Below, in pieces: positions 782 to 27,050 of a stretch of 27,209 bases of DNA. Positions within the stretch are counted from its first letter, which is position 1, and each line of letters opens with the position of its first letter. Source of the stretch: a virus (taxonomy: Duplodnaviria; Caudoviricetes); the IMG/VR virus record IMGVR_UViG_3300032373_000840, positions 1 to 27,209 of that record; one strand, 5' to 3'. The notes under the pieces were generated by a model, which saw only the letters and a list, made by a program, of their open reading frames with translations, was not told the origin of the DNA and ran no database searches. The translations under genes were made by a program, and so were the position numbers.

Positions 782-1123
782 TTAATCCGCCTGCTTGCGT
801 AAAAAATGCGGGAGCTTTTCACCCTTCATGATTTCTTCTGTCAATGGATCAGACGGTACAACAGGATCACCGGCAAACGCGTTGATGCTTTCCCAGTGTA
901 GTTGTATGTTGCTGACCACTTCTTTGTTGTTGTCATTTTTACCGATCACACCCAATGCGTATTGTGCGATCGCGCCGATGTTATCCATAATCAAATCACT
1001 GTGTTCTAAAAACGTATCGAAGCGCACACCGAATAATTCCCAAACACCCAGCTTTACATATTGCTGCGCTTTGTCTTCGATCATCGCATTGCTGTAGAAG
1101 TTGTTATTAATTTGAGTCATCAT
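782..1123 (-). CDS. Hypothetical early protein
   Basis: 113-aa ORF coupled to the MuB stop codon, same strand as the operon, GGAG RBS upstream. Confidence 0.75.
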   Translation of the reverse strand: MMTQINNNFYSNAMIEDKAQQYVKLGVWELFGVRFDTFLEHSDLIMDNIGAIAQYALGVIGKNDNNKEVVSNIQLHWESINAFAGDPVVPSDPLTEEIMKGEKLPHFLRKQAD

Positions 1124-2199
1124 TACTTTGCTCCTTTGGGTTCTTCTAAACCCATGGCTTGTTTACCGGTTTCAATCACCAGGTCTACGCTTAACGGATA
1201 GTCTTTGCGTAAACCCATTTCAATTAAGTTACGTAATAGTTTTGCTAACACCCTTGCTCGTGCTTCGCACATATCCCAAAACGCATTATTTAACTTTGTA
1301 TTGGTTTCATAGCCGTAATTATTCAGCACGGTTTTCACAATCAAGTTGCAATCTTTCTTTGAGATACCCTCAATCAACGGGGGCCAAAACCCGACCCGCG
1401 AACTAATCTGTCCGTGTTTGCCATCGATCGACTTAACCAGCCCTCGCAACGCTTCCGCACCCGATAACACACAGCCGATATCTGCGAGGTCTGATATTCG
1501 ACGTGCGTACTCCAGAGTATTCGCGTTCACTTTTTCGGCCTCGTCTAAAATCAACAGCGCATCTTTTGATTTGAAATATTCGATAATAGCCGTCATCTTT
1601 TCATCCTTAGTGCCACCGCGTGAGCGATTAAAGGCGGTACTGCAATCAATCGAAATCTTGAGCTGTTTAACGATGTCACTTAAAAACAACATCGGCGTCA
1701 TTTGCGGAACGCCCTCGACTAGAACCGCACTTGGGGTCGTTGCTGCATAGTGCATGAGAGTAAAGGTTTTACCGATGCCTTTTTGGCCTGAGATAATCCC
1801 AAAGTCTCTATGCTGATGCGCACGTTGGCAAACGAGTAACACAGTGCTGTAAACGGATGTTTTGCACAGCGGGATTTCTACACCGGTTATCCCTCTGTGT
1901 GTATCACGCTCTAAAAAATCTAACGCAGCTGAGATAAACTTGCTGGGGCTGGATGTATACTTTCCGCTGAGTACCTGGCTAAACGTGCTGTCTTTAACGT
2001 TACACAAACGCGCTAAAGCTGCCTTTGTTCGTGGGTGGCCATTCTCTAATTGCGCATCTGACGATAACCATGAATTAATGATATTAATGCTTTGCACATC
2101 AACAGCCGTGTAATGCTCAGGCCATTTGTTTATGTCGGTAGCGCCCATGTCGGTACCGGCCACTACTCCTATGTCAGACCCTACTACACCAGTTTTCAT
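1123..2199 (-). CDS. MuB-like AAA+ ATPase (DNA transposition protein B) with N-terminal HTH
   Basis: Walker A GQKGIGKT, Walker B LLILDEAE, QISSRVG arginine-finger region, HTH KAALARLCNVKDSTFSQVLSGKY; adjacent to the transposase. Confidence 0.93.
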   Translation of the reverse strand: MKTGVVGSDIGVVAGTDMGATDINKWPEHYTAVDVQSINIINSWLSSDAQLENGHPRTKAALARLCNVKDSTFSQVLSGKYTSSPSKFISAALDFLERDTHRGITGVEIPLCKTSVYSTVLLVCQRAHQHRDFGIISGQKGIGKTFTLMHYAATTPSAVLVEGVPQMTPMLFLSDIVKQLKISIDCSTAFNRSRGGTKDEKMTAIIEYFKSKDALLILDEAEKVNANTLEYARRISDLADIGCVLSGAEALRGLVKSIDGKHGQISSRVGFWPPLIEGISKKDCNLIVKTVLNNYGYETNTKLNNAFWDMCEARARVLAKLLRNLIEMGLRKDYPLSVDLVIETGKQAMGLEEPKGAK

Positions 2200-3959
2200 A
2201 GCTCCCCCTTGTCGTTGTGTGAGTTACGTGATAAATCAATGGTTGATGTTTTTTCTTCTTCCACTACGTGATGGTCATCCAGAAATATTTCTGATTTTTG
2301 TTCATCCGCATGGGTAATCTCGTTTAACAGCGGCGTGAGTAAATCGATGCTGGGTTTAGTATCCTGCTCAAGCTTCGGCGTTTCTATTTCATCAAGTTCA
2401 CCGGTAAAATTATTGATGCCGTCAAGCACTTGGTCATGGGTGATATTGCTACCCACGCGTTTTTCATTCTCATCAATCCGTGATTGCAATCGTTTGGTTT
2501 GACCTTTGAGCCGCTTATGTTCATTTTCTTCAATACGTGATGCCGGTAAATAGTGTGCTTTGTTTACTAACTTGGCATCACATATCCAGCGTTCATCTTG
2601 GGTGAGTACTCTTACTATTGAATCATCATGAACGTTGTATTCCGCGACTAACTTTGTACCGTTGTATTGTTGTAGCTCTGGGGCCATGTACTCGCGTTTA
2701 TCTAGCCGGAAACCTTGGCGCTTAACATTCACTTCTTTCTGTGGCCAACAGATTGCGTGGGCGGGTATCTCTATCGGTACACGTTCTAAGGTTGCCCAAA
2801 GTTGAGCGGGTGTTTTGCCGTCTAATGCACTATGGACGGTGTTGTTGTATTGCTCGATAAAAGTTGCTAACGATGCGGTGTAATCTTGCAAGGTGGGCAG
2901 TTCGTATTTATTCGCTTTGGCATCACGTACTATTTTATTAAGTACATCCGGGGCCATGTCATGGCCGCAGTAGGTGTCGTACATTTTGTCATGTTGATCT
3001 CGCAAAGTGCGAAACCATCGCTCGACCTGGCCTTTGCCTTTTGGGTTGCCCGGTATACTAAAAATAGTCTCAATCGAAAACCGTGCGTAAAACCCACGGC
3101 TCTTGTCGTTGACCATTTTTGACTTAAAACCGGCTCCGTTATCTATATGTAACATCGCGGGTACATGGTCGTGCTGCATGAGTGCGTGAGACAAAGCAAA
3201 CAAAGTCGACAGTGCGGATTCGCTCTCTGAGATAAACCACCCGACAATGTAACGCGAGCGAACATCGATCCAAACCGTTAACTCTGGTCTCCAGCTTTTA
3301 CCGGTTTGCGGATGGCCGAGGTAAGCATCTATCGTATGGCCATCGCCTTGGTAGATATAACCAACTGGGATTACAGTTGTGTCACGCCGAACAAAACTTT
3401 TCTGAGTATCGCGGTGTTCTTTTGCACCTAAACGCTTACGTGAGTTTTCACTTAAGTTGGCTGGCATTGATTTTATATAACTGCGTACACGGGCATTAGT
3501 CGCCGTATCAAAGCCGTCTCGACGTAACCAAAGTGCTACCGTATCGATGCCCGGTTTTTGCGGTTGCGAGTAATAGCGCAAGGCCACGGCTTCCCATCCA
3601 TATATTTTACGCTCTGAACCTTTGTGTTTTTTAATCAAGCCCATAATGCCATGTTCTTTAAAAGCCGCTATCCAGTTATAGAGCGTGGCACGTGACGGTG
3701 GGTTGTCTTTCCGGCCCAGCTTTAGGGCAAGTTTATTAATGTCATTTGATAAACGGTTATACTTTACCTGGGCAATAAAATTATCAACGATGGCTCGCAT
3801 GCTTCCCCCTTGGTTTTCTAAATCGATTAAGTGCTTCACGATACGCTCACGGTCGCTGGCTAACTCACGCTTTACTTCGGGCAGTTGATCCCACTCGGTT
3901 CCAGCACTAGAGTTTGTGACCAGTGATAGCGAGGGCGCTTTTCGTGCGAGCTGGTTCAT
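2196..3959 (-). CDS. MuA-like DDE transposase
   Basis: HTH PSRATLYNWI; catalytic YQGDGHT, LHIDNGAGF and KGQVERWF motifs; Mu-type C-terminal barrel region. Confidence 0.95.
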   Translation of the reverse strand: MNQLARKAPSLSLVTNSSAGTEWDQLPEVKRELASDRERIVKHLIDLENQGGSMRAIVDNFIAQVKYNRLSNDINKLALKLGRKDNPPSRATLYNWIAAFKEHGIMGLIKKHKGSERKIYGWEAVALRYYSQPQKPGIDTVALWLRRDGFDTATNARVRSYIKSMPANLSENSRKRLGAKEHRDTQKSFVRRDTTVIPVGYIYQGDGHTIDAYLGHPQTGKSWRPELTVWIDVRSRYIVGWFISESESALSTLFALSHALMQHDHVPAMLHIDNGAGFKSKMVNDKSRGFYARFSIETIFSIPGNPKGKGQVERWFRTLRDQHDKMYDTYCGHDMAPDVLNKIVRDAKANKYELPTLQDYTASLATFIEQYNNTVHSALDGKTPAQLWATLERVPIEIPAHAICWPQKEVNVKRQGFRLDKREYMAPELQQYNGTKLVAEYNVHDDSIVRVLTQDERWICDAKLVNKAHYLPASRIEENEHKRLKGQTKRLQSRIDENEKRVGSNITHDQVLDGINNFTGELDEIETPKLEQDTKPSIDLLTPLLNEITHADEQKSEIFLDDHHVVEEEKTSTIDLSRNSHNDKGEL

Positions 3960-3962
3960 TTA

Positions 3963-4982
3963 CTATTTTTTACCCGACTTGTCTTTAGGCTTTGGCCCAC
4001 GTTTTTTACCGGCGTTTTTTTCTTTTTCGATTCGCTCTCGGTGCTCATCACGTAATGCTTTTTCGGCATGATGTTGCGAGGTCATGTAAGTACGTTTTTC
4101 CAACAGACGTTTGGCTTCTATGTCGGTCATCAATGCAATCTCACTATTTTCTAAAGTGAGTGCGCCGAAGGTTTTAACAAACGTATTCAGTGCTTGTGCG
4201 GCCTTGGCATTTATCGCATGTAGGTTTATCCAAAGGGTACTTAAAGCGGCTTCAACTTGGCTGGGATGGTCTTTTGATATCTCGTTAGCGTTACGCTCTA
4301 ATTCATCTATCAACGCGGCGATGCTATCAATATCTAAAAACGCGTGGTCGGTTAGTGCAGCACCTTCGATGCGAACTTTTTGGATTAAAGGGTGGTAGTC
4401 GATCTGCGGTTCTTCGTTTCTCTTAGCGCGTAGATCGTCTAATATTATTTGAGTGGTGTTCAGCTTGATCTGTGTAGTGGCAAGCTGTTGGCGAAGTTCG
4501 TCGTTTTCATCGCGGTGGGATTTGATTTGGTCTGATAGTTCGCGGACTGAATTGAGTTGGGCATCTTCGACGGTAATGCCGTGAGTTTCTTCACCTTTAA
4601 AAAAATCGTCTAGCTCGTCATCCGACCAAGCAAGTAATAGTAGTAATTTGCTAGGCTGTAAGTTTCGAAGTGTTGCAAAGTTTTCTTCCGATACTCTCGC
4701 AGAAAGCTTTGCAAGATTAATCGCACGTTGTGCGGTATCGCGGCCAATTCCTCTCTCGGCAAGTCCTGCCATATAAATGCCGTGACCTAGCTCGTCTTTC
4801 AGCCCAATCAATGCAAAGCCTTTATAAAGTACCCCGGCAAGCTCCAGGCGGTCGCCGGTCATCGCGTGGTCTAGCCTTTCCTCCGCTGGCATTTTCATGA
4901 GCTTATCCACTGGCACGAGTTCCAGTTTTTTTAAATACTTCACCACATGACTGGGTGGTTTTAGTAAGTTACTTTTTGGCAT
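3963..4982 (-). CDS. DUF3102-like protein with C-terminal coiled coil
   Basis: GFALIGLKDELGHGIY...GIGRDTAQRAINLA motif; typical position upstream of the transposase. Confidence 0.75.
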   Translation of the reverse strand: MPKSNLLKPPSHVVKYLKKLELVPVDKLMKMPAEERLDHAMTGDRLELAGVLYKGFALIGLKDELGHGIYMAGLAERGIGRDTAQRAINLAKLSARVSEENFATLRNLQPSKLLLLLAWSDDELDDFFKGEETHGITVEDAQLNSVRELSDQIKSHRDENDELRQQLATTQIKLNTTQIILDDLRAKRNEEPQIDYHPLIQKVRIEGAALTDHAFLDIDSIAALIDELERNANEISKDHPSQVEAALSTLWINLHAINAKAAQALNTFVKTFGALTLENSEIALMTDIEAKRLLEKRTYMTSQHHAEKALRDEHRERIEKEKNAGKKRGPKPKDKSGKK

Positions 4983-5022
4983 GGTGCTATTCCCTTCTTT
5001 TTATGCTGTATTTGCGTTAGTT

Positions 5023-5050
5023 TCAAATTACGCAACGTTGCGTAATTTGA
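5023..5050. repeat. Perfect 28-bp palindrome TCAAATTACGCAACGTTGCGTAATTTGA
   Basis: Two 14-bp arms that are exact reverse complements with no spacer; intergenic, about 40 bp upstream of the DUF3102 start. Confidence 0.97.
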
Positions 5051-5063
5051 GCTTAAAAAACGA

Positions 5064-5507
5064 TCAACGCTTTAGCGCACGTTCTTGTTGTTGTAGCCCC
5101 GCCCTGGCCAATGCAATGCGGCCCAGCTCTAACGCTTTGGCATCGTCGCTATCGATCAACTCAAAGCCCAACTCACTTGGCCCCACGTTGAGCGGTACAT
5201 AACAATCCGTTGCCCAACAAAATGCAGGTAGGTAGCGATACGGAAATTCTGAATACTCTTTACTCCTGGCTGTCCATGCGTTGAGTTGGCGCAAGGTGAT
5301 CGGTTTGTCTAAATCGGGTAAGCATAAATTCATGCGCTCAACGATGTGCTCACGTGACAATCCGCGCCGTGTTGCTTTTTTTAATGCGAGTGCAATCGCA
5401 CCTTGCAGCTCGTTAAAAATATCTAGGTCCGGTGGATTGGCGCGTGTGTTCGGTATGTCTAAATCAAATGCGCCTTGTTGTGCTTGTGTCGATGTGCGTG
5501 TGTTCAT
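5064..5507 (-). CDS. Phage regulatory protein, CII-like HTH
   Basis: LSREHIVERMN...ITLRQLNAWTA...LPAFCWAT pattern common in transposable phages; ATG 5507 preceded by GAGGGG (alternative start 5528). Confidence 0.7.
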   Translation of the reverse strand: MNTRTSTQAQQGAFDLDIPNTRANPPDLDIFNELQGAIALALKKATRRGLSREHIVERMNLCLPDLDKPITLRQLNAWTARSKEYSEFPYRYLPAFCWATDCYVPLNVGPSELGFELIDSDDAKALELGRIALARAGLQQQERALKR

Positions 5508-5657
5508 TTTATTTTTAGGCCCCCTCATTGTGTGATTTATAGTTGATGGTAAAAATCGTGCTAATGCTGGTAAAAATCAGTTCGGGTTTTACCAGTGACA
5601 CGATTGCTGATTACTCCTACACTGGTGATACTTAAAACAGACAAAAAGGAATGTGAT

Positions 5658-6131
5658 ATGAAATCAACAAAAGCGGTTGCCTCAGTCGCACGAGACTTTA
5701 ACGATATGACCTTGGTGGCCATGTCGATTGCAGATGTCACTATTGAATGCGATACATTGCGGCGTAACTTATTCGGCGATACACCCGCCCCAGAAACCGC
5801 ACCTGTTATTGATGATGCAGCCCAAGGCCGCTTGATGCGCTGGCTCATTGATTCGTTCCCTCATCACATGGCGAACGCGACCCCTGAACTAATGCGCTTT
5901 GGTTTGGATGAGCAAGATGCCCAGGCGTTACTCCATCGGCTGTGGACGATGCCTGAATGCCTTGATCGGCTTGTCCAAGAAGTGCAGCTTTTTGGTGTGT
6001 CTCCTGAATCCGCTCTAGGACGCGATGGTGTAATGCTATTGCCCTCGCTTTGCGGACATCGGCTAAGCGGCTTACTGGTATATAGGCATTTCCATTTTTC
6101 GCTGGCTTGGGCGGCGGTGTTTGAGGATTAG
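5658..6131 (+). CDS. Hypothetical protein antisense to the early operon
   Basis: 157-aa ORF with AAGGA upstream of the ATG and protein-like composition; overlaps a minus-strand ORF. Confidence 0.45.
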   Translation: MKSTKAVASVARDFNDMTLVAMSIADVTIECDTLRRNLFGDTPAPETAPVIDDAAQGRLMRWLIDSFPHHMANATPELMRFGLDEQDAQALLHRLWTMPECLDRLVQEVQLFGVSPESALGRDGVMLLPSLCGHRLSGLLVYRHFHFSLAWAAVFED

Positions 6132-6135
6132 TCAT
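5845..6135 (-). CDS. Hypothetical early protein (96 aa)
   Basis: AGGAG RBS before ATG 6135; start overlaps the stop of the upstream ORF. Confidence 0.5.
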   Translation of the reverse strand: MTNPQTPPPKPAKNGNAYIPVSRLADVRKARAIALHHRVLERIQETHQKAALLGQADQGIQASSTADGVTPGHLAHPNQSALVQGSRSPCDEGTNQ

Positions 6136-6373
6136 GCGTGTGGCTCCTGTTTTTATCAGTGACATTGTTTGACCGCCTTGCCATACCTTCCCGGCGTATC
6201 TTGACGATCTCTCGATGGCGCATAATCTCTTTATCCGACTTATGTTTATAAGGATGTACAAATGAATGACGTTTATAAATACGCCAGAAATAGTAGAAAA
6301 CTGGCCCAGGAAGTAATCGACGGAGTAGCGGAATCCGAGACCTTTGCCGTGAGTCCTTTTGATGATGCGTCAT
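6128..6373 (-). CDS. Small basic hypothetical protein
   Basis: 81-aa ORF with AGGAG RBS, on the operon strand. Confidence 0.6.
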   Translation of the reverse strand: MTHHQKDSRQRSRIPLLRRLLPGPVFYYFWRIYKRHSFVHPYKHKSDKEIMRHREIVKIRREGMARRSNNVTDKNRSHTHD

Positions 6374-6515
6374 GCTAAAAGCTCCTAATATTTATCGTGC
6401 GTTTAAACGCGTTTTAAGCCGCGCTTGAAGTAAACCTATGCAATGGGGTAGAAAAAATATGATCGTTGAACTATCGAGTTTTAATAGGCTTCGCTGTGCG
6501 CCTGTATATGTTTGT

Positions 6516-7118
6516 TTAGAGGTCTTCATCATGCTGTACCGAAACGGGATAAGTTCCTTTCAAACATTCGCTAACGGTCGATGCTCCAAACCCTACGAGC
6601 CTTGCTATTTCAACTTGCGCAATACCGCGAGCTTTCAGTTGTTTCATTTCTTTAACGTGCTCCATATTCAGGCGTGGTTTTTTTCTCGGTGGAAGTGCTG
6701 GCTTGGGTGGATGAATACTTCTTATGTTGTCGCGAAACTGTGCCGGAGGTAGATAGGTGTCTGCATGTTGAAACCAATACCAAAGCAAAACCCAAACGAT
6801 GCCTTGTCGATAGATGGCAAGTTTTTTCAAGATCGCTTCGTCTTGTGGCCGTGCGGTACGCAAGAACCAAGACAAGTCTTCAATCGGTATTGCATGCCAT
6901 TGTTTACCATCAACGGGGAATTGAATAATCACCAAGTCCGCATGGGCCGCTTGTTTTTGCAATCGCTTAATTTGATTTTTGACCTTTATCCCCAAGGAAT
7001 TACAAATAGGGTCAATCGGTACAAAGGGCCGTCCGTTCTGCGGGTAGATAAAAACCGAGTCACCATTGAATGGGATTTCAATTAAGTGGATGTTGTCGTT
7101 TTGTACGGTTTGGCTCAT
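6516..7118 (-). CDS. Antirepressor-like protein: P22 Ant N-terminal domain plus C-terminal HTH
   Basis: IPFNGD...PFVPIDPICNSLGI (P22_AR_N-like); C-terminal GIAQVEIARLVGFGASTVSECL HTH. Confidence 0.8.
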   Translation of the reverse strand: MSQTVQNDNIHLIEIPFNGDSVFIYPQNGRPFVPIDPICNSLGIKVKNQIKRLQKQAAHADLVIIQFPVDGKQWHAIPIEDLSWFLRTARPQDEAILKKLAIYRQGIVWVLLWYWFQHADTYLPPAQFRDNIRSIHPPKPALPPRKKPRLNMEHVKEMKQLKARGIAQVEIARLVGFGASTVSECLKGTYPVSVQHDEDL

Positions 7119-7151
7119 CTATCTATTCCTTTATATAGAGGTAGGTGGAAA

Positions 7152-7361
7152 TTAAGCAGCTTGGTTATACCGGCCATCGGGCCAGATTTGCTTAAGGGGT
7201 ATACCCGTCACTTCGGATATACGTCTTGCAATGGGAGATGAATTGTTTTTAGAGCGAATGACTTGATAGACAGCCTGACCAGTTACACCGCAATCGGCGG
7301 CTATTTTGGTCTGGCTATACGCGGCTTTGGTTAAAGCCGCTATAATGTCGGCATAGTGCAT
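7152..7361 (-). CDS. ner: Ner/Cro-like early transcriptional regulator
   Basis: MHYADIIAAL...QTKIAADCGVTGQAVYQVI...QIWPDGRY; first gene of the early operon, divergent from the repressor. Confidence 0.82.
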   Translation of the reverse strand: MHYADIIAALTKAAYSQTKIAADCGVTGQAVYQVIRSKNNSSPIARRISEVTGIPLKQIWPDGRYNQAA

Positions 7362-7373
7362 AGTTTTTACCTC

Positions 7374-7394
7374 AGGCGTTCCAGCGCCTTTTTT
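7374..7394 (+). terminator. Short terminator-like hairpin in the ner/repressor intergenic region
   Basis: AGGCG-TTCCAG-CGCCT followed by a T-run. Confidence 0.35.
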
Positions 7395-7445
7395 GTGACT
7401 AATGTGCTTGAAAATTGAAATTTATAACTAAAGTAAGGTGACTAT

Positions 7446-7463
7446 AGTGCACATATGTGCGCT
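7446..7463. promoter_or_regulatory. Candidate operator in the lysis/lysogeny switch region
   Basis: Perfect palindrome GCACATATGTGC (7449-7460), extendable to 18 bp with one mismatched pair. Confidence 0.55.
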
Positions 7464-7475
7464 TTACAAGAAAAT

Positions 7476-8209
7476 ATGGCAAATTCGTTCACATTATTTG
7501 GTGGAAGACTTAAGTCTGAAAGAAAGAGGCTTGGGCTTAATCAGACTCAGCTGGAGTTTCAAAGCGCTCGCAGCTAAATTATGAGGTGAACGAACGTGCA
7601 CCTGATGCAAAATATTTAATGCTAATTGGAGAAAAAGGCATTGATACGACTTATTTACTCACCGGCAACCGCACCCCTGCGCCGGAACCCATCGCCGCCG
7701 AGGGCCAGGGTGCTTATGATGTTGAGCCAATCAAAAAGCCCAACGTTGGGAAATTTGACGATAATCAACCCGCTTCTGATGCGGGTAGTTTTGATGCCTT
7801 ACTCGAAGTCGCCGAAGTCTTGCGACCGCTCAATACGGATGATCGCGCACAGTTTTTTGAGTTTTTTAAGATGTACCGCTATTTAGATGTGGACAAACGA
7901 GCATCATTGTTCGCCGGAGATGCGAAAGAAACAGCGCTGTCCCCTGGTCTCAGTGAATTAAATCAAAGTATCGACGCTTATAACGAAGCCGATCGGCTGC
8001 AATTTTTTGAATTTATTAAAATGTATCAATACTTGGATGATGGCCCCCGCATGCAGGTGATTAAAAAAGCTCAACACTTAACGAAGCTTGCATTGGCTGA
8101 GAATTATGCGAAAGAAATCGGGCTAAATGCCCAGGGTGATCGCCCGTCAAAGCATGCTAAGCAACAAAAATCCAAACGTCAGAAAGTCAAACAGCGCAAA
8201 GTGGGCTAG
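7476..8209 (+). pseudogene. XRE-family phage repressor with a frameshifting deletion in the HTH near 7552
   Basis: MANSFTLFGGRLKSERKRLGLNQTQ in one frame (stop 7575-7577); GVSKRSQLNYEVNERAPDAKYL...GIDTTYLLTG continues in another frame. Confidence 0.85.
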
Positions 8210-8254
8210 TGGGCTAGTACTTTAGTACTAGTTAACGATTACAGCCTAGTACTT
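8201..8254. promoter_or_regulatory. CTAG-rich operator-like repeat cluster
   Basis: Tandem GTGGGCTA x2; inverted repeat CTAGTACT-TT-AGTACTAG (8214-8231); third CTAGTACT at 8246-8253. Confidence 0.5.
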
Positions 8255-8314
8255 ATGGGCTATATATGATCCCTTATTTTTTTGTGTTAACGTTGAAGCG
8301 CGTTTAAAGACGCA

Positions 8315-8358: not shown

Positions 8359-8624
8359 CATCGGGGCCACAAATCGCTTCGGCACATACGTGACTGATAT
8401 CAAAAGTAGGTTGCACGTATACAAAGACAATAAATTGGAGGGAGTCGACGTGACGAATGTTGCGATGTTCCCTGCGTTGTCCGCGTGTGCGTTTTTGCGG
8501 TTTGCTGCAACTCAGGGTTTTAAAATAATCAAGTTTATACGTGATGCCTACGTAGTCTTTCGATCTATTTTTGTAGACCAGGTGGTCGATGTAGTTGGTA
8601 CGCAGTCAACCGAGCATCACGATC

Positions 8625-9170
8625 ATGTCTATCATTTTAGTCGTCGACGACGACAGCTTTATACGCGAATCATTAAAACACGCGCTGCAAACGCATACCG
8701 TATACGTAGTCAACGATGGTTTAGAAGCGATTGCGTTTTTAAAAACGATAACGCCGGATTTAGTACTTACCGATCAGAACATGCCGAACATGACGGGGAG
8801 TGAACTCGCTGAACACCTGCGTGATAAGCGGATAGCGTTTGTGATGATGTCGTCAGACCGGGAAGCGTTATTGCAAATCAGCGCGATGGATTTAGGCGCG
8901 ATTGATTATTTGATTAAGCCGTTGTCGCTGGATCAAACCCGCTTTAGTGTGGATACAATTTTAAAACGCTTGCCAGCTAATAGTAATAATGAAAACGATA
9001 TTTTACTGAATACTGCGATTGGTTTGTTGGTTGAGCGTTTTCGGTTGTCGCGACCTAGCGCATACCGGCGTTTACGCAAGATTGCGCGCCTTGAAAACAC
9101 TGATGTTGTAGTGGTGGCGCGAGACCTGGTGATCCATGTCGAAGGGCTGAATATTGGTGGGGATGGTTAG
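8625..9170 (+). CDS. Response regulator with REC and ANTAR domains (AmiR/NasT-like RNA-binding antiterminator)
   Basis: ILVVDDD, PDLVLTDQNMP, MMSS, GAIDYLIKP; C-terminal LNTAIGLLVERFRLSRPSAYRRLRKIAR...VVVARDLV has the ANTAR three-helix pattern. Confidence 0.9.
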   Translation: MSIILVVDDDSFIRESLKHALQTHTVYVVNDGLEAIAFLKTITPDLVLTDQNMPNMTGSELAEHLRDKRIAFVMMSSDREALLQISAMDLGAIDYLIKPLSLDQTRFSVDTILKRLPANSNNENDILLNTAIGLLVERFRLSRPSAYRRLRKIARLENTDVVVVARDLVIHVEGLNIGGDG

Positions 9171-9979: not shown

Positions 9980-10010
9980 GTAGCCTGGATGAAGCGTAGC
10001 GGAATCCGGG
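9980..10010 (+). repeat. GTAG-family REP-like element
   Basis: GTAG tetramer followed by the imperfect hairpin CCTGGAT-GAAGCGTAGCGGA-ATCCGGG. Confidence 0.65.
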
Positions 10011-10142
10011 GTTTGTGGTTTCGTTCTCCCGGAGAGTCTGCTCCACGAAGTGCTTTGGGTATTCCGTTACACTCCACCCAGGCTACGCTTGATTTTAATA
10101 ATTACATAACACGCCCTTTCTTTTCGTTTATTTTTACGTTTC

Positions 10143-26540: not shown

Positions 26541-27050
26541 ATGAAATTCATTTACAATGACATCTCTTTTTCTCAATCTAAAAAGATGTGTGTAATTATG
26601 TTTTCTGTTGACGACAAAAAAGCAGTTTATGTTTCTCGAACCGATGCTGATAATCCGCTATCGAGTTATTCAAGCCACGCCTTCGAACTCGATGGGGATA
26701 CATGGCCATCGGTTGAACACTACTATCAAGCGAATAAGTTTGAAGACGAATCGATAAAGGAAAGTATAAAAACAACGAGCAACGCAGAAGAAGCGCGCAA
26801 AATCGCGAAGAAACGAAACATTCGCTCAGACTGGAAAAAAAACAAAGTAACGTTTATGACCCGCGCGGTTTACATTAAGTGCTGCACCCATGAAGATGTT
26901 CGGCGCTCACTACTCAGCACTGGCGACGATGACATCGTCGAAAATAGCCAATATGATTATTTCTGGGGTTGCGGGCGTGACTTACGCGGCGATAATGTTT
27001 ATGGAAAGATATTGATGGATGTGCGAAAAAAGATAACCGCAAAAGAGTAA
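26541..27050 (+). CDS. NADAR/YbiA-family protein (host gene; real start may be 26598)
   Basis: WPSVEHYYQANKF, IRSDW, LLSTGDDDIVENS.YD.FWGCG...N..GKILM.VR. Confidence 0.9.
   Translation: MKFIYNDISFSQSKKMCVIMFSVDDKKAVYVSRTDADNPLSSYSSHAFELDGDTWPSVEHYYQANKFEDESIKESIKTTSNAEEARKIAKKRNIRSDWKKNKVTFMTRAVYIKCCTHEDVRRSLLSTGDDDIVENSQYDYFWGCGRDLRGDNVYGKILMDVRKKITAKE

Follow-up and report, generated by a model that had tools for sequence, protein, structure and literature searches.

The stretch of DNA analysed here, called the window throughout, comprises positions 1 to 27,209 of the IMG/VR virus record IMGVR_UViG_3300032373_000840, and this study concerns a palindrome within it and the gene beside that palindrome. 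The gene content of the window marks it as part of a Mu-like transposable phage: it codes for a DDE transposase, a MuB-like ATPase and a Mu-type head protease, and a Ner-like gene is present too; the contig is about 66% complete. A DUF3102-like gene (phrog_1748) encoding 339 aa occupies 3963-4982 on the minus strand. The palindrome, at 5023-5050 (no strand assigned), lies 40 bp before the ATG of this gene. An earlier note, made from the letters of the window, had described it as a perfect palindrome of 28 bp, which was borne out, and it is the longest in the window, the runners-up being 14 bp, half its length. It has the form typical of the family of sites described below, CAAA plus nine variable bases, mirrored, and is the likely main binding site of the DUF3102-like protein.

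Read on either strand, 5023-5050 translates as S-N-Y-A-T-L-R-N-L, while residues 100-108 of the DUF3102-like protein, encoded at 4685-4659, are E-N-F-A-T-L-R-N-L. The earlier note had drawn attention to this likeness, and recomputation gave the same figures: from N onwards (residues 101-108), seven of eight residues are identical and six of these seven are specified by a different synonymous codon. The palindrome is out of frame with the gene, its reading frame beginning 65 nt before the ATG by coordinate arithmetic. The in-gene copy (4659-4685, minus strand) has lost the symmetry, as had been claimed; it retains 6 of 13 pairs, overlaps a predicted helix at residues 99-105 and is identical to 5023-5050 at 16 of 28 nt. 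In a six-frame comparison with the palindrome peptide, the in-gene peptide scored 37 and the palindrome itself 41, with all else at 25 or below. Among the 330 nine-mers in the protein, only residues 100-108 can be encoded by a perfect 12-pair palindrome in the register concerned. A third, imperfect copy of the site, absent from the earlier note, was found at 7731-7758 (again without an assigned strand) within a repressor-like open reading frame (ORF). This copy has 10 of 13 pairs and matches at 22 of 28 nt, compared with 20 or fewer for the best match in 300 Markov-simulated windows.

Relatives were collected by a profile search that gave 915 proteins at E ≤ 0.001 (the best 150 of the 915 were listed), and loci were gathered via the adjacent transposase, plus a few from genome searches, to give 153 non-redundant and 45 held-out loci. 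In 27 of the 153 loci, the stretch that follows the helix-turn-helix forms a palindrome with 10 or more of 12 pairs, in the exact register of residues 100-108, compared with a mean of 0.02% at other offsets; a palindromic segment in homologs had been anticipated by the earlier note. These palindromes are almost all different from one another, with both arms altered together. The closest relatives in the DNA-binding domain, L238 (68%) and L031 (62%), keep the in-gene palindrome at this segment, which supports the claims that the site and the in-gene segment have a common origin and that the site was relocated out of the gene in the window. Strict sites numbered 84 in 574 kb near the gene versus 6 in 866 kb downstream. 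Their positions were N-terminal coding sequence (33), the post-helix loop (28), up to 350 bp upstream (9) and further upstream (14), and in-gene sites occurred in all three reading frames. With a relaxed scan, a site was found in 111 of 195 loci versus 8 of 381 control windows, and 84 loci had none at that threshold. The family palindrome is a DNA element, since 61 of its 68 even sites have a complementary central pair and a bias towards G-U is lacking. A site just upstream of the start was found in L025, L003, L028 and L348 as well as in the window, and L021 has an additional distal copy within a 195-codon ORF of opposite orientation.

Several other arrangements were seen among the relatives. 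Distal clusters of two to four sites are present in L204 (-2661 to -2607 from the gene start, with 27 bp spacing), L207 (-838 to -660) and L078 (-1126, -1087), and some sites in this group mismatch the helix of their own locus. In a betaproteobacterial/Methylomonas subclade (L233, L413, L439, L450, L454 and related loci), an insert that precedes the helix-turn-helix contains one or two sites; these have different outer bases and were overlooked by the strict filter. In three loci the full gene has, directly upstream, a short additional ORF that resembles only its N-terminal part (L002:3598-3984, L027:4630-5016 and L072:1874-2275).

The earlier note had proposed that residues 100-108 recognise the DNA sequence that originally encoded them, and had expected peptide and palindrome to co-vary among homologs. 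No such co-variation was found. In the 31 loci with the site outside the segment, mean peptide-site identity was 1.29 of 8 versus 1.29 after shuffling (p=0.54); with the window included, the values were 1.47 and 1.34 (p=0.17). In L025 and L003 the site is placed upstream just as in the window, yet their peptides match at only 2 and 3 of 8 residues. Since the peptide does not track the site, and given these two mismatches, the window is likely an early stage of site relocation rather than a rule. Instead, residues 82, 83, 85 and 86 co-vary with the site family-wide; they lie in the predicted recognition helix (residues 81-96; 4695-4742, minus strand), 14-26 residues upstream of the 100-108 segment. 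Recognition of the site by the protein remains probable from the sequence comparisons, but residues 100-108 do not appear to be the reader.

For 65 loci, the co-variation scan compared residues 55-124 with the eight half-site bases. Three pairs led the list, 86/N6 (z=21.6), 82/N4 and 85/N3, with 83/N5 in sixth place below two non-helix pairs, 116/N8 and 60/N8. When the scan was restricted to the 48 loci without a site at the segment, the first four places all went to pairs in the helix: 86/N6 (z=15.3), 83/N5, 85/N3 and 81/N2. On a tree of the C-terminal part, an independent-pairs test was passed by three of the four pairs (p=0.016, 0.002 and 0.001) and failed by 83/N5 (p=0.25). Because the helix-to-base rules were picked after the scan, they were then checked on held-out loci, where 35 of 41 predictions in 13 loci, several of them related, were correct, compared with 22.2 ± 2.9 under the null. 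The half-site of 5023-5050 obeys the family rules, having C at N6 with R86, C at N4 with D82 and no T at N3 with Q85. The only difference between the peptide and the palindrome, F/Y, sits at N3, where T is found in 0 of 9 loci with Q85; this would fit a drift in specificity after the site moved. Proteins with near-identical C-termini can have different helices and sites (for example P0003/P0006 and P0001/P0002), and the sequences suggest that helix and site may be exchanged as one cassette, swapped between phages as a unit.

The assignment of the protein to DUF3102 holds in part. The term DUF3102-like is justified, as 17 of 144 homologs match PF11300, but the window protein itself scores below the Pfam cut-off for this family (13.7 versus 24.4 bits) and had no Pfam match at E ≤ 0.01. 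Its structural neighbours in the Atlas include clusters with 12-21% DUF3102, and the top structure row is DUF3102. The protein is predicted to consist of a ParB/Noc-like DNA-binding domain (about residues 46-162), a long helix (146-189) and a C-terminal helical domain. The predicted fold of the DNA-binding domain is similar to that of ParB/Noc (PDB 6S6H, 6Y93 and 7NFU). There was no Pfam match to a ParB/Srx CTPase domain, and only about 45 residues, all helical, precede the aligned domain. A dimer was predicted with a score of 0.69 versus 0.00 for the control, with its predicted core at residues 196-275 (4158-4397, minus strand). In this model the contacts are made by the head and the C-terminal bundle and not along helix 146-189, a pattern that would suit a ring. 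In a weak alignment, segment 100-108 corresponds to the ParB helix that lies between alpha4, the recognition helix, and alpha6; this intermediate helix is not named among the contact regions in section 9 of PMC7383237.

We believe that 5023-5050 is probably the DNA docking site of a dimer of the adjacent DUF3102-like protein, and that the matching peptide is likely the fossil of an older site within the gene. The predicted dimer would read each half-site with the recognition helix of its helix-turn-helix. The older copy of the site would have lain inside the gene, as it still does in close relatives, leaving the peptide behind. With a working copy upstream, the in-gene DNA would have been free to degenerate through synonymous changes; the peptide itself may have been kept as a structural helix.

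Other explanations of the palindrome are considerably less probable. It might be an RNA hairpin, or be bound by another factor (Ner, the repressor or a host protein), with the co-variation of the helix reflecting mere linkage; the helix and an in-gene site are only about 40 bp apart and would hitchhike. We consider this improbable because the co-variation also holds for sites away from the segment, and the palindrome has neither a loop nor a G-U bias, with no Rfam match in 3900-8300. The proposal that residues 100-108 are a specificity segment reading their own coding DNA fares worse and is now very improbable. The seven of eight matching residues in the window speak for it, and L021 and L296 match at 6 of 8 with a second site; however, in those two loci the segment is itself the site, so that common descent accounts for the match. 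Besides the failure of peptide and site to co-vary and the poor matches in L025 and L003, sites are spread over several parts of the gene and use all three frames, and the ParB helix with which the segment weakly aligns lies outside the contact regions. Least credible of all is chance, or a remnant of a recent gene duplication. The short extra ORFs of L002, L027 and L072, which resemble the N-terminal part, speak for a duplication; against it, the flanks of the palindrome and of the in-gene copy are unrelated (4-10 of 30 nt match), only 16 of 28 nt are common to the two, and such sites recur across the family. A recently duplicated gene fragment was ruled out by these flanks.

For the role of the bound protein, the neighbouring transposase is informative. 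The Mu-type DDE transposase of the window (587 aa; 2196-3959, minus strand) has no detected PF02316 N-terminal domain, and it is followed by the MuB-like AAA transposition protein (1123-2199, minus strand). MuA binds its enhancer via its own N-terminal domain, on repressor operators. In transposases that adjoin a DUF3102-like gene, the part ahead of the first catalytic Asp is shorter by about 70 residues: fewer than 250 aa precede this Asp in 95 of 96 partner transposases, versus at least 260 in 33 of 35 others. PF02316 was found in 0 of 26 partner transposases versus 10 of 30 others, in a subset of 56 of 189. Because the partner transposases are without PF02316 and MuA binds the enhancer via its N-terminal domain, we rank first, tentatively, a role in which the protein and its site would be a stand-alone enhancer factor, standing in for the missing transposase domain. 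It weighs against this role that the partner gene changes just once on the tree, so that the evidence for enhancer replacement amounts to one event.

Two other roles for the same binding are close rivals. The dimer might act as a repressor of, or a roadblock to, the operon of its own gene, the transposase and MuB, from 40 bp before the ATG, in a KorB-like manner. Early regions of Mu-like phages contain repressor operators, which agrees with such a role, as does the site just upstream of the start in the window, L025, L003, L028 and L348. We nevertheless regard operon repression as rather doubtful: 61 of the 84 strict sites are within coding sequence, where promoter occlusion would work poorly, a search of 4900-5700 on the minus strand gave no sigma-70 match (a weak test), and the shorter transposases are left unexplained. 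Alternatively, the dimer might use the site as a loading point and spread from there for kilobases like ParB or Borrelia ParZ, marking phage DNA as self (for example by clearing the MuB ATPase against self-insertion) or aiding segregation or packaging. ParZ (BB0432) is described in the text of PMC9712426 as binding within its own gene, spreading about 8 kb and being proposed to be phage-derived. The predicted ParB-like fold, the contacts of the dimer model, which would suit a ring, a common match to phrog_1733 and a direct profile match to ParZ (hhalign E=4.7e-4 over 80 columns) are in line with such spreading. We consider it unlikely, since neither a ParB CTPase domain nor a ParA gene was detected (no ParA-family match in the 16 window ORFs scanned, on a contig about 66% complete) and the profile match to ParZ is weak, with a probability of just 32.5%, and 2.8% with a shallow alignment.

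The remaining genes near the palindrome include a transcriptional regulator (phrog_2345; 5064-5528, minus strand) upstream of the DUF3102-like gene; the stop codon of the regulator gene is 13 bp short of the palindrome. A P22-antirepressor-like gene with a C-terminal helix-turn-helix follows ner (6516-7118). By eye, the repressor-like gene appears to be frameshifted in its helix-turn-helix (7476-7600): the N-terminal part from 7476 ends early, and the remainder runs on in another frame into the ORF 7586-8209. Either a true lesion or a mistake in the assembly may be the cause. A gene with response-regulator receiver and ANTAR domains (8595-9170) lies between the immunity region and the head genes. 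An inverted repeat (9980-10086), with 26-nt arms that are 85% complementary and 55 nt apart, directly precedes the head protease gene. A NADAR-domain gene is at the right end (26541-27050).

We also compared the phage protein with ParZ obtained from six Borreliella genomes. phrog_1733 is matched by the window protein (E 2e-5), by 72 of 144 family members and by the two ParZ proteins scanned (E 3e-20 and 4e-21). Each of the six parZ genes carries, immediately behind its helix-turn-helix codons, an imperfect inverted repeat (L491-L496:1841-1865, 9-11 of 12 pairs), and this position aligns with residues 100-108 of the phage protein. The inverted repeat is the top G+C-weighted repeat in five of the six 3-kb loci and tied in the sixth, the weighting having been chosen after the repeat was seen. 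In each of 33 ParZ-like peptides, 10-11 of 11 pairs are attainable somewhere within the ten residues after the helix, as they are at fewer than 2% of centres per protein; these peptides are closely related and are not 33 independent cases. From its sequence, the repeat is a candidate ParZ loading site. No paper naming it was found in the article text searched, and 'palindrom' is absent from the main text of PMC9712426. The likenesses to ParZ are the predicted binding within or near the own gene, the common phrog_1733 and a repeat at the aligned post-helix position. ParZ differs in being chromosomal, in its length of 237 aa and in its partner ParA, with a ParA-stimulating N-terminal peptide; the phage protein has 339 aa, adjoins a transposase and has no ParA nearby.

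These results give a widespread, uncharacterised family of phage proteins a predicted target and a simple helix-to-base code, which would provide a natural set of orthogonal protein-site pairs. The peptide that seemed to spell its own site is accounted for as a fossil and not as a new recognition principle. Two questions become directly testable, namely what substitutes for the MuA enhancer domain in these phages and where ParZ loads within its own gene. A more speculative and, as a whole, doubtful proposal joins the two: a Mu-like clade would have replaced the enhancer-binding domain built into its transposase with a ParZ-like dimer and a swappable, self-addressed cassette of helix and palindrome with a readable code, and the same design would have passed to the ParZ of the Lyme spirochete, whose centromere would be the inverted repeat after the helix-turn-helix.

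Among known systems, lambda O with its intragenic iterons and KorB-OB likewise have sites in or beside their own gene or a ParB-family protein as regulator. The lambda O iterons are direct repeats for replication initiation, and we know of no cassette-like turnover of helix and site for either system. In Mu, the text of PMC5977238 describes an enhancer that MuA binds and the transposition machinery uses; like the palindrome, it is an early-region cis site close to the repressor gene. Unlike Mu, the phage described here has a separate protein of another fold with its own palindrome, beside a transposase without PF02316, and functional equivalence is putative. No paper on DUF3102 sites was found among the literature listings searched. 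ParB-parS and Noc-NBS (PMC7383237) have a DNA-binding fold like the one predicted for the phage protein, a dimer on a palindrome, as is also predicted for the phage, and a few helix residues that switch specificity. In contrast to these, the phage protein has no detected CTPase domain, its specificity apparently resides at residues 82, 85 and 86 (aligned, weakly, with ParB 174, 177 and 178), and its site is 25-28 bp long, highly variable between phages and usually written inside its own gene. The phage protein and its site would be a variant of the ParB-superfamily protein-palindrome systems.
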